In this document: positions 10,941 to 12,760 of the stretch, piece after piece
Layout: the number at the start of each line of letters is the position of its first letter
Numbering within the stretch: position 1 is the stretch's first letter
Made by a program: the position numbers and the translations under genes
Notes under the pieces: model-generated
What the model was told of the DNA's origin: nothing
Seen by the model: only the letters and a program-made list of their open reading frames with translations
Database searches by the model: none
IMG/VR virus record: IMGVR_UViG_3300027741_000051
Location: 1 to 64,000 of that record
Reading direction: 5' to 3' (one strand)
Origin: an uncultured virus (IMG/VR IMGVR_UViG_3300027741_000051)
Taxonomy: Duplodnaviria; Heunggongvirae; Uroviricota; Caudoviricetes
Length of the DNA stretch: 64,000 bases

Positions 10941-11209
10941 TTGTTGTTAATCCTATTCATCAATTTGATTATGCCGGCGCATCTTTCAATGTTTACCACG
11001 CCAACATGAATGAAGGATTACCAAAACATGAACACACATTCGCTCACGCTACAATATGCAATGCAGGTAGTTGCATCCTACGCAAAGAAGGTCGTGAAAA
11101 AATTATCAATAAGTTTTCAAAACCAATTAATCTTGCAGCAAACGAATGGCATGAAATAGAAGCACTGGAAGACGGAACAGTTTTTGTAAATATATTCGAA
11201 AACACTTAA
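10937..11209 (+). CDS. cupin-fold protein
   Basis: HEHTFAH ... AANEWHEIEALEDGT cupin motifs. Confidence 0.75.
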   Translation: MIVVNPIHQFDYAGASFNVYHANMNEGLPKHEHTFAHATICNAGSCILRKEGREKIINKFSKPINLAANEWHEIEALEDGTVFVNIFENT

Positions 11210-11221
11210 ATTATGAGAGGC

Positions 11222-11250
11222 TTGACAAGTCTCTAATCCTGTGATACAAT
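11222..11250 (+). promoter_or_regulatory. sigma70-type promoter of the ncRNA locus
   Basis: TTGACA-17-TACAAT with TG extension; predicted start near 11257. Confidence 0.8.
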
Positions 11251-11259
11251 ATATAATTA

Positions 11260-11350
11260 ACACACTTATGAACTGGGACATGGCTCAGCTGTGCAATTAG
11301 ACTAAGTTCCCACTTTGTGGGTACGGGAGTGAGAATCTCCCTAAGTGTGT
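11260..11350 (+). ncRNA. tRNA-like structured RNA, no canonical anticodon arm or CCA
   Basis: 9-bp closing stem ACACACTTA/TAAGTGTGT stacked on GGGAG-TGAGAAT-CTCCC T-arm; extra hairpins CTGGG/CTCAG and CCCAC/GTGGG. Confidence 0.6.
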
Positions 11351-11419
11351 ATTTTATTGCTGTATGAAGCAAAGAGAAAAGTGTTCTGGACGGGGGTGCG
11401 AATCCCCCCACCTCCACCA

Positions 11420-11497
11420 AAAACGCATCTGCCAGTCGCTCTGGTTGTATGGTACTATTCTAGAAATAAGGTTCAAGTCCTTTGGTGCGTTTTTGAT
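11420..11497 (+). ncRNA. tmRNA intervening segment with tRNA-like cloverleaf
   Basis: ACGCATC/GGTGCGT 7-bp stem, TG linker, CCAG/CTGG D-like stem, AAGG-TTCAAGT-CCTT T-arm. Confidence 0.6.
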
Positions 11498-11632
11498 GGG
11501 GGTGCATAGTTTCGACAGGGCAACAAGTAACAGAGTGGACAGCACGGTAGGCGATGACCGTTAATCAAGCAAAAAACGTAAATGCAAACGACTCCGCATA
11601 TCGCCTAGCTGCTTAAGCTAAGCTGAGGTTTC

Positions 11633-11663
11633 GCCGACTGTCCTTATTATCCAATCAGTCGGC
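11633..11663 (+). terminator. 3' hairpin of tmRNA coding piece
   Basis: GCCGACTG...CAGTCGGC 8-bp stem; weak U-tract. Confidence 0.5.
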
Positions 11664-11689
11664 AATTTGTTCAACAATAGGAGAAAATT

Positions 11690-12133
11690 TTGATTAAAAA
11701 ACTCGTACTTATCGCATCCCTTATGGGTGTATTTGCAAGCGCACAGGCTTTAGAAGTTGGTATCAATGATGGCACCAATCTTAGCTCAACACAAAATGTT
11801 TGGGGTGTATCAGTTGGTGAAACCGTACATGGTTATAACCTAACCGCAGGATTCAATCGTTCTACATCCGCTGACTCTTACAGTTTGGTTAATAGTGTAG
11901 AGGTATCAAAAATGGGACCTGTATCAATTGATGCTAAATTTGGTCTTCTTTTTATCGATAGCCAATCAGGTTCAGCTTATGATGGTTATGCCGCTTCTGC
12001 TGGTATTGGTGCTCGTATGCCAATTACCAAGTCAGTTACAGCAGGACTTGATTACAGTTACCAAGCTGGTCAAGACCGGGTTGTTGCAGAAAACGGTAGC
12101 CGTATTACTGCTGGCGTTAAATTTAGTTTCTAA
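11690..12133 (+). CDS. outer-membrane beta-barrel protein (small 8-stranded OMP type)
   Basis: Sec signal ending AQA; amphipathic beta strands; C-terminal beta-signal AGVKFSF; TTG start with AGGAG SD. Confidence 0.8.
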   Translation: MIKKLVLIASLMGVFASAQALEVGINDGTNLSSTQNVWGVSVGETVHGYNLTAGFNRSTSADSYSLVNSVEVSKMGPVSIDAKFGLLFIDSQSGSAYDGYAASAGIGARMPITKSVTAGLDYSYQAGQDRVVAENGSRITAGVKFSF

Positions 12134-12208: not shown

Positions 12209-12760
12209 ATGCGAAGTAAAGCAATACTTTTCAGCATAGTAGTTTCCGCAATAGTTCTTTGCCTCGCTACGATAAACATTAATTATAGAATTCCTCTAAA
12301 AGTTAATTATCGGGATCTCACTGAGGCAACAAAAAGGCAGGTTACATGCCTTGCAGAGAACATTTACTTTGAAGCTGGACATGAACCATTGAGTGGTAAA
12401 CAAGCTATTGCTTTTGTTACCATTAATCGTGTTCAATCCGGTTACAGTAAAGATATTTGCGGAGTTGTTCATCAGAAGACGGGAGGAACCTGTCAGTTTT
12501 CATGGTTATGTGATAAAAACATTACCGATAAACGCTTGACAATTAGAGATAGTTCGTTGTATAATGAAGTTCGTGAGTTGGCCGTGGATATGATTCTAAA
12601 TCGTGACCTCAAGGAAGATGTTACACAAGGTGCAACATACTATCATGCCGACTATGTAAATCCACAATGGAAATTGGAAAAAGTGAAGAAAATAGGTCAT
12701 CACATTTTCTATAGAAGCCGTGTGGATAATATTGACAGAAATAGGAGTTTTTATGAATAA
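12209..12760 (+). CDS. cell wall hydrolase, SleB/Hydrolase_2 family, with N-terminal TM anchor
   Basis: CLAENIYFEA, VTINRV, CQFSW, GATYYHADYVNPQW, IGHHIFY. Confidence 0.92.
   Translation: MRSKAILFSIVVSAIVLCLATININYRIPLKVNYRDLTEATKRQVTCLAENIYFEAGHEPLSGKQAIAFVTINRVQSGYSKDICGVVHQKTGGTCQFSWLCDKNITDKRLTIRDSSLYNEVRELAVDMILNRDLKEDVTQGATYYHADYVNPQWKLEKVKKIGHHIFYRSRVDNIDRNRSFYE
12536..12565 (+). promoter_or_regulatory. sigma70-type promoter (intragenic)
   Basis: TTGACA-18-TATAAT upstream of gp33/gp59. Confidence 0.55.

Follow-up and report, generated by a model that had tools for sequence, protein, structure and literature searches.

An apparently exchangeable tRNA-like module in the intervening segment of a permuted phage tmRNA gene

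The segment that separates the two pieces of the permuted tmRNA gene described here is tRNA-like and is not a tRNA: it gives no match to the Rfam model of tRNAs, and it possesses neither an anticodon arm nor a CCA end. Judged by sequence identity among relatives, this type of spacer, which we term class A, is conserved more strongly than the mature tmRNA itself. On balance we think it probable, though well short of assured, that the spacer is a selectively kept, exchangeable tRNA-derived cargo, that it is freed by tRNA-type processing on its flanks, and that tmRNA maturation does not need the module. The spacer of a two-piece tmRNA has hitherto been treated as disposable; in the present gene no other part is as well conserved, and the spacer is tRNA-shaped and moves between tmRNA genes and the trailer of a tRNA.

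The window, the whole stretch of 64,000 nucleotides that was analysed, is part of a 74.8-kb IMG/VR virus record from a lake phage. It encodes gp32, gp59, a gp6-like baseplate protein, PhoH and a late-transcription coactivator and can therefore be assigned to a T4-like phage. ARAGORN at default thresholds called a single permuted tmRNA in the window, with the tag ANDSAYRLAA*, and a search of the locus with Rfam gave RF04321 (tmRNA_permuted) at 137.2 bits, against a gathering score of 47, and RF01850 (beta_tmRNA) at 99 bits. The RF04321 alignment treats the spacer as an insert between the model positions CCA and GGGG, which places it in the intervening segment (IVS) of a permuted tmRNA. The CCA of the acceptor piece occupies 11417-11419 and the coding piece opens with G1 at 11498, so the IVS spans exactly 11420-11497, the same 78 nt that the initial annotation had delimited. 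The locus is organised as follows:

11222-11250, plus strand: sigma-70-type promoter TTGACA-17-TACAAT with a TG-extended -10 (11 of 12 matches), driving the tmRNA precursor
11260-11350, plus strand: leader element of cloverleaf topology, apparently optional and of no known family (fold, seven copies)
11358-11419, plus strand: tmRNA acceptor piece, ending in CCA at 11417-11419 (RF04321 alignment, sequence)
11420-11497, plus strand: IVS, a tRNA-like class A cassette within its closing stem (sequence, RF04321 alignment, MFE, RNAalifold, covariation)
11498-11673, plus strand: tmRNA coding piece, with the tag ANDSAYRLAA* at 11584-11616 (ARAGORN, Rfam)

A distant blastn search with 11200-11720 against the phage GenBank collection returned no relative and a single 74-nt match, to a Xanthomonas phage. 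Directly 3' of the tmRNA lies a 147-aa open reading frame (11690-12133) with a signal-peptide-like N-terminus and no Pfam match, followed by a cell-wall hydrolase (PF07486) at 12209-12760 and then by the late-transcription coactivator, gp59 and gp32.

The MFE fold of the 78 nt consists of a closing stem (P1), a hairpin (P2) and a T-arm-like hairpin, and it leaves 11446-11467 unpaired. Together with the segments identified from the alignments described below, the spacer comprises:

11420-11429, plus strand: 5' strand of the closing stem P1, pairing with 11484-11493 over 10 bp (MFE; 6 of 10 pairs compensatory)
11431-11445, plus strand: hairpin P2, GCCAG/CTGGT, that is CCAG/CTGG plus a G.U pair, with a 5-nt loop without GG (MFE; 5 of 5 pairs compensatory, 100% paired)
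11447-11457, plus strand: near-invariant core GUAUGGUACUA, resembling a tRNA D-loop (GG) and possibly a partner of the T-loop (alignments)
11458-11467, plus strand: linker UUCUAGAAAU, an 8-nt palindrome, which replaces the extra hairpin of a longer class A' form (alignments)
11468-11482, plus strand: T-arm-like hairpin AAGG-UUCAAGU-CCUU, with a loop matching UUCRANY and a G-C closing pair (MFE; A-U/G-C swap at pair 64-76)
11484-11493, plus strand: 3' strand of P1 (MFE, covariation)
11494-11497, plus strand: UGAU tail, the 5' leader of the coding piece, abutting the putative RNase P site at G11498 (TGAT in 75 of 87 unique spacers among the matches listed)

The initial annotation had read from the letters a 7-bp ACGCATC/GGTGCGT stem with an A/T extension, a D-like stem CCAG/CTGG and a T-arm AAGG-TTCAAGT-CCTT beside the 3' strand. 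All three reappear in the MFE fold: the first as a 10-bp stem including three A-U pairs, the second as P2 with its added G.U pair, and the third as AAGG at 11468-71, TTCAAGT at 11472-78 and CCTT at 11479-82, with a single U between it and the 3' strand of P1. The non-canonical anticodon region and the lack of CCA, which it had also remarked on, agree with the unpaired stretch 11446-67 and with the UUUUGAU that follows the 3' strand. The folding energy of the spacer is unremarkable (z -1.30; 21 of 200 shuffles fold as well), and the window copy taken alone could be a product of chance.

We gathered further class A copies using pattern scans and a covariance model, R1, built on the first alignment, and obtained at least 13 distinct tmRNA-borne copies. 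Nine of the spacers collected are of the short form, 76-81 nt in length (window, L079, L132, L165, L175, L209, L212, L215 and L281, which equals L132), while the long form, class A', measures 88-90 nt (L157, L183, L193, L198 and L406) and carries an extra 4-5-bp hairpin at the site of UUCUAGAA in the window. RNAalifold run on 11 homologues recovered P1, P2 and the T-stem, the same helices as in the MFE fold, with compensatory changes at 11 of 19 pairs. In an alignment of 13 copies, which was fitted to the structure of the model and favours that structure in the counts, pairing is seen in 98.5% of the cells, and both partners change at 13 of 23 pairs. None of 500 shuffles matched the observed percentage of pairing, the number of compensatory pairs or cells, or the covariation score, and sliding the partners by 1-3 columns lowered pairing to 32-51%. 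The comparison of homologous spacers that had been suggested as a check on the fold thus finds it conserved. Covariation was seen at all five pairs of P2, and the extra hairpin of class A' changes from CCGG/CCGG to CUGG/CCAG. The loops are nearly unvarying, with G28, T29, T31, G32, G33, A35, C36 and T37 (within GUAUGGUACUA) invariant and the rest at least 90% conserved, and GGUUCRANUCC is mostly invariant across the copies. The covariation in P1 may largely reflect the entry of one cargo into different slots, not compensatory evolution, and part of the high conservation could stem from recent horizontal spread; the 13 copies do not amount to many independent lineages.

To compare the spacer with its surroundings, we calculated identities to the window for the IVS, the 62-nt acceptor piece and the first 110 nt of the coding piece. 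With the window as the reference, the IVS was more similar than either mature piece in all seven short-form relatives:

L132: IVS 99%, acceptor piece 89%, coding piece 77%
L079: IVS 97%, acceptor piece 90%, coding piece 76%
L212: IVS 90%, acceptor piece 75%, coding piece 50%
L165: IVS 88%, acceptor piece 79%, coding piece 72%
L209: IVS 80%, acceptor piece 68%, coding piece 63%
L175: IVS 79%, acceptor piece 61%, coding piece 64%
L215: IVS 75%, acceptor piece 61%, coding piece 58%

The claim that the spacer has tRNA geometry held in part. The acceptor-like stem, a canonical T-loop and the GG-bearing UAUGGUA speak for it, and the T-arm has the UUCRANY loop, the G53-C61 closure and the position beside the acceptor 3' strand, with one U between, of its tRNA counterpart. 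On the other hand, RF00005 did not match 11410-11505 at E up to 10 nor, at E up to 1, the spacers of L175, L165, L215, L183, L193 and L157, and ARAGORN recognised the element only at relaxed thresholds: among 10 class A and A' spacers it called none at default settings, three at 90% thresholds and eight, including the window, at 80% thresholds. The same 80% setting called one of 1000 fully shuffled sequences, 5 of 1000 in which P1 was kept and only the interior permuted, and 2 of 174 natural IVSs without the T-loop motif. In the relaxed parse the acceptor stem has 8 bp, P2 serves as the D-arm, the anticodon stem contains mismatches and the T-arm is a proper one. The anticodon arm of a tRNA, with 5 bp in the stem and 7 nt in the loop (U33, purine 37), is absent, 11446-11467 being unpaired in the MFE fold and paired in the relaxed parse only with mismatches, and no CCA is encoded after a discriminator base. 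Having neither anticodon arm nor CCA, the class A module cannot decode.

P2 occupies the position of the D-arm and has a 5-nt loop without GG; next comes the invariant UAUGGUA, with no more than 2-3 weak pairs around it. R1 weakly matched a real tRNA in a phage tRNA array (25.1 bits; L331, L354), and because the D-arm region of this tRNA reads GUAGUAUGGUACUAC, the UAUGGUA core looks like a D-loop with G18 and G19, which suggests that the GG core may dock on the T-loop as in a tRNA elbow. A 2-3-bp stem around UAUGGUA was considered as a true D-stem and rejected, as column 29 is T, giving a U.U mismatch, in 7 of 13 copies. The best Rfam match of the spacer was the mascRNA-menRNA family RF01684, with 20.9 bits and an E of 0.018 in a 96-nt search, below the gathering score of 42.5; the spacer of L175 scored 26.7 bits. 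Other spacers grade into real tRNAs: that of L164 reaches 44.4 bits on RF00005, and ARAGORN calls those of L162 and L164 'tRNA-???', with odd anticodon loops.

We then turned to two-piece tmRNA genes of phages in general. A scan of viral contigs for CCACCTCCACCA-N55-85-GGGGGTG gave at least 120 loci, and 94 of those listed passed a permuted-tmRNA test, defined as a complementary acceptor stem plus a TCGAC-type motif downstream. These yielded, among the matches listed, 87 unique IVSs, which form an unselected sample. Within this listed set, P1 has at least 7 bp in 83 of 87, with a mode of 10-11 bp, starts 0-1 nt after CCA in 85 and ends 4-5 nt before G1 in 84, and the last four bases are TGAT in 75. 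The interiors are highly diverse, and a T-arm-like hairpin beside P1 occurs in 2 of the 87 listed. With a P1 of this length present in 83 spacers and the T-arm-like interior in two, the 'acceptor stem' belongs to the slot in general, and only a few slots carry the tRNA-like interior as cargo. Wide scans with class A patterns gave member counts that are lower bounds; among the matches listed, the permuted-tmRNA test was passed by 8 of 118 viral and 10 of 120 metagenome loci, the rest being mostly ordinary tRNA arrays. Scanning contigs of bacterial genomes with a T-loop-spacer pattern found 17 loci, one of which passed the test (L435, a Lysobacterales MAG). The L435 spacer belongs to the same class as those of the viral loci L159 and L186 and is the sole bacterial-genome match with a T-loop-bearing tmRNA spacer.

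Comparison of the spacers with the tmRNAs that carry them pointed to exchange of the cargo. Among the matches listed, the tmRNAs nearest to the window in their mature parts are L150, L139, L117, L109 and L129, with acceptor/coding identities of 100/87, 97/89, 100/85, 98/86 and 94/90%, respectively, and their spacers are only 52-56% identical to that of the window, which is background. L079 and L132 show the opposite, with spacers 97-99% identical to the window and mature parts only 89-90% (acceptor) and 76-77% (coding) identical. Class A is found in tmRNAs whose best match is alpha-type (L175, L215, L193, L183, L157) as well as beta-type (window, L165), and a scan with the class A core located 14 viral loci. 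At L588 and L597 the class A interior lies outside the tmRNA, 1 nt after the CCA of a tRNA-Thr(UGU), and is closed by a different 13-bp stem. The tmRNA of this phage itself, about 400 nt upstream of the tRNA-Thr, contains a different interior, which sits in the class A closing stem of L209 (AAAGCATACT/AGTATGCTTT) and the corresponding T-arm/acceptor flanks. With another interior inside an L209-type closing stem and class A behind tRNA-Thr, it follows that the cargo moves relative to the slot. Furthermore, the class A interior is presumably not needed for tmRNA maturation, since the module is missing from sister tmRNAs whose acceptor pieces are identical. The idea in the initial annotation that the spacer records the original permutation within a tRNA array is not borne out, the cargo being both exchangeable and rare.

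According to the accessible part of PMC3985003, RNase P makes the tmRNA 5' end; cleavage before G11498 would therefore make U11497, which ends the UGAU leader, the last base of the spacer. In the scheme that we favour, the whole precursor would be transcribed from the promoter at 11222-11250, and RNase P would cleave 5' of G11498 and so define the 3' end of the module. We infer that a second cut, at or just after CCA, would excise the spacer and free the acceptor piece together with a roughly 75-nt tRNA-shaped RNA. This cut could be made by RNase P, guided by the elbow and stem of the module, or by another endonuclease, and exonucleases would presumably trim a few extra bases off the CCA end; cleavage by RNase P at the 5' side of the spacer is plausible. 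The slot is formed by a closing stem that begins 0-1 nt past the CCA and stops 4-5 nt (mostly UGAU) short of G1, and its cargo here is the probably tRNA-derived class A module, with a small hairpin, the UAUGGUA core and a T-arm stacked on the closing stem. Selection would keep this module for a role of its own, probably through enzymes or partners that read the tRNA elbow.

Parts of 11200-11720 were present in 23 sequencing runs, none of which held half or more of its words. In Logan contigs from four lake metatranscriptomes (X1, X2, X3 and X7; 90% likeness), the acceptor and coding pieces are covered, from many relatives, and 11434-11487 and 11200-11343 are uncovered; contigs show neither RNA ends nor absence, so this result is neutral. 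Five joints in the metatranscriptomes skip the spacer, with unknown letters between the pieces, and represent relatives with other spacers.

A broader proposal, which we offer as a tentative one, is that the spacer of two-piece tmRNAs is a general expression slot of fixed geometry with exchangeable cargo (tRNA-shaped RNAs, whole tRNAs, other folded RNAs, and micro-protein genes that stop at the UGA of the tail), and that class A is a trans-acting mimic of the tRNA elbow with its own function in infection, for example titrating or recruiting an elbow-reading host factor, with one copy produced per tmRNA made. If the excised RNA accumulates, aquatic T4-like phages would have an unnoticed class of small tRNA-mimic RNAs that lack a promoter and terminator of their own, and the tmRNA gene would also serve as a vehicle for delivering exchangeable cargo.

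The initial annotation had instead proposed a possible processing system of the 'tRNA punctuation' type, in which RNase P cuts near 11423 and the acceptor piece leaves with CCA plus a few A. Read as a cis-acting signal, this means that RNase P would dock on the elbow, that about three A would be left for exonuclease trimming, and that the module would exist for that purpose. The distance in the window would suit such a ruler, as 12 layers separate the T-loop from 11423 (7 bp and a T-stem that contributes 5 layers if the U.U is included); across the copies, however, the stack of T-stem and P1 amounts by our own count to 13-17 layers, not 12, so that a ruler-guided cut would fall 1-6 nt inside the helix. 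The most conserved parts of class A are the T-loop and the GG core, the very features that the specificity domain of RNase P reads in tRNAs. In the window the predicted +1 is A and -1 is not U. The accessible text of PMC9433436 adds that RNase P is hindered by pairing that extends the acceptor stem and that pairing of the 5' leader with the 3' RCCA is unfavourable. The 5' side of the module is 0-1 nt from a CCA end in both of its contexts, the tmRNA spacers and the tRNA-Thr trailer of L588 and L597, the second of which places the same interior outside a tmRNA. As for the need for such a signal, the interior occurs in 2 of the 87 spacers in the unselected set of unique IVSs (among the matches listed) and the other 85 have no T-arm-like hairpin beside P1, the nearest tmRNAs have unrelated spacers, and two of them, L150 and L117, presumably mature with these despite an acceptor piece 100% identical to that of the window. 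L079 and L132, in turn, share the spacer and lack the upstream cloverleaf. We consider it less likely that processing is what the module exists for, although a helper role in freeing the CCA end is a serious rival.

It is less likely still, in our view, that class A is a decaying captured tRNA gene that has lost its anticodon arm and CCA, has no present function, and owes its conservation to the recent spread of a cassette by recombination. The anticodon region is indeed degenerate in class A, the short form looks like a 12-nt deletion of the class A' hairpin, and spacers with whole or near-whole tRNAs exist, as in L164 (44.4 bits) and in the tRNA-Ala case described in the accessible part of PMC11915505. 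However, across tmRNAs that are 50-79% alike, P2 (5 of 5 pairs) and the T-stem are kept paired by compensatory changes while the loops are invariant, a pattern that neutral decay would not leave, and the spacer is conserved above the functional tmRNA in 7 of 7 short-form relatives. A chance resemblance, in which an ordinary spacer hairpin happens to hold a TTCAAGT loop, is hardly credible: the z of -1.30, the lack of an RF00005 match at E up to 10 and the lack of a default ARAGORN call would allow it, but it is contradicted by the covariation, by the relaxed-ARAGORN controls, by the recurrence of the interior in 14 viral loci and by the R1 model, which finds no match in the window besides the spacer.

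Work by Keiler, Shapiro and Williams in 2000 and by Sharkady and Williams in 2004 is said to have founded the study of circularly permuted, two-piece tmRNA genes. The IVS of the permuted tmRNA families RF04321 and RF01849-51 lies, as here, between the acceptor CCA and the coding G1 and by definition does not form part of the mature RNA. In the RF04321 model it is a loop without structure, whereas the spacer described here is a conserved, covarying multi-helix RNA with a generic closing stem and an exchangeable interior. The common point with mascRNA and MEN-beta (RF01684) is a tRNA-like fold without a decoding function. The eukaryotic mascRNA is reportedly cut out of a longer transcript by enzymes of tRNA processing. 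Its similarity to the spacer is essentially the GGUUCAAGUCC T-arm, the two are unrelated in origin, and release of the phage spacer by such enzymes is something we infer. In tRNA punctuation, as in mitochondria and bacterial tRNA operons, a tRNA-shaped element beside an RNA end could likewise let RNase P define that end; unlike there, the spacer module is optional and missing in most sister tmRNAs, and its stem exceeds the acceptor stem of a tRNA by 2-6 bp.

Two-piece tmRNAs of phages are already known and make up 53 of 133 unique phage tmRNA structures in the accessible text of PMC9004378. The OM43 phage Melnitz described there is, like the phage studied here, an aquatic T4-like phage with ssrA upstream of a late-transcription coactivator gene; the accessible text reports a glutamine riboswitch in the 3' domain of the Melnitz ssrA and is silent on the structure of the spacer, whereas an Rfam search of the tmRNA locus in the window found none. 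A precedent comes from the tmRNA database paper PMC11915505 (2025), whose accessible part calls a permuted tmRNA with an intact tRNA-Ala in its intervening sequence a 'unique feature' and mentions a repetitive element in the spacer of another tmRNA. There, too, a tRNA-type element is nested in an excised spacer; as far as that text goes, the tRNA-Ala spacer is a high-scoring real tRNA, whereas class A fails the tRNA models, has no anticodon arm or CCA and is a recurrent phage cassette. Apart from this tRNA-Ala case, the full-text literature that was searchable, whose coverage excludes the founding papers on two-piece genes, returned no account of conserved tRNA-like or exchangeable tmRNA spacers; within that literature, the statement in the initial annotation that no description of the layout was known is thus nearly correct. 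The window adds a new class of cargo and evidence for swapping, and the spacer offers a natural system in which to study the handling of two nested tRNA-like domains by RNase P and the enzymes of the 3' end.

The initial annotation had also described the precursor as tRNA-like, acceptor, tRNA-like and coding piece in succession, and a second cloverleaf-shaped element, at 11260-11350, indeed precedes the acceptor piece. This leader of 91 nt folds into a four-way junction with a closing stem of 9-10 bp and three hairpins, the last of which, GGGAG-UGAGAAU-CUCCC, adjoins the 3' strand of the closing stem; the fold has a z of -3.06, matched by none of 200 shuffles, and no Rfam family matches 11260-11350. 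Seven copies share the same fold and are almost invariant. Among 12 viral loci found by the leader hairpin motif, promoter and leader are near-unchanged in nine, in front of tmRNAs with various acceptor stems and spacers. From its distribution the leader appears to be optional: it is missing from L079 and L132, which have the same IVS, and in the remaining class A loci the promoter is located a few bases before the acceptor piece. At L574 and L577 the leader is followed by a protein gene instead of a full acceptor piece.

Several other spacers and neighbouring elements were encountered in the scans. Micro-gene spacers, with a Shine-Dalgarno-like run, an ATG and 22-30 mostly hydrophobic codons whose stop is the TGA of the TGAT tail, make up 9 of 83 unique spacers (L480, L481, L483, L485, L500, L502, L503, L542 and L546) and 1 of 87 in the other sample (L103/L110, among the matches listed); related copies differ by conservative substitutions (e.g. 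...YFGYDFR). In the spacers of L498, L518 and L479/L490, the T-arm-like hairpin follows immediately on the 5' strand of P1, thus lying on the 5' and not the 3' side, and reads TGGG-TTCGATT-CCCA, ACGG-TTCAATT-CCGT and AGGG-TTGAAGT-CCCT, respectively. Class B spacers, in which GGTTCGAATCC is flanked by AAGG/CCAA (e.g. L156), showed no convincing T-stem on reading and were set aside. L598 (G001) contains, at about 1790-2030 between the tmRNA and the tRNA-Thr, some 240 nt of non-coding sequence that is rich in GC and in hairpins and has AT-rich arms (TTTTATTAGGGTAGC...GCTACCCTAATAAAA); this may be another structured RNA of the same RNA-gene cluster. Finally, L164 and L215 lie about 430 nt apart on one viral contig as two tmRNA-like units in tandem: the upstream unit, L164, has the spacer that Rfam scores as a tRNA (44.4 bits), followed by a very short GGGGTCG...CTCCACCA unit, and the downstream unit, L215, is a complete tmRNA whose spacer is of class A.
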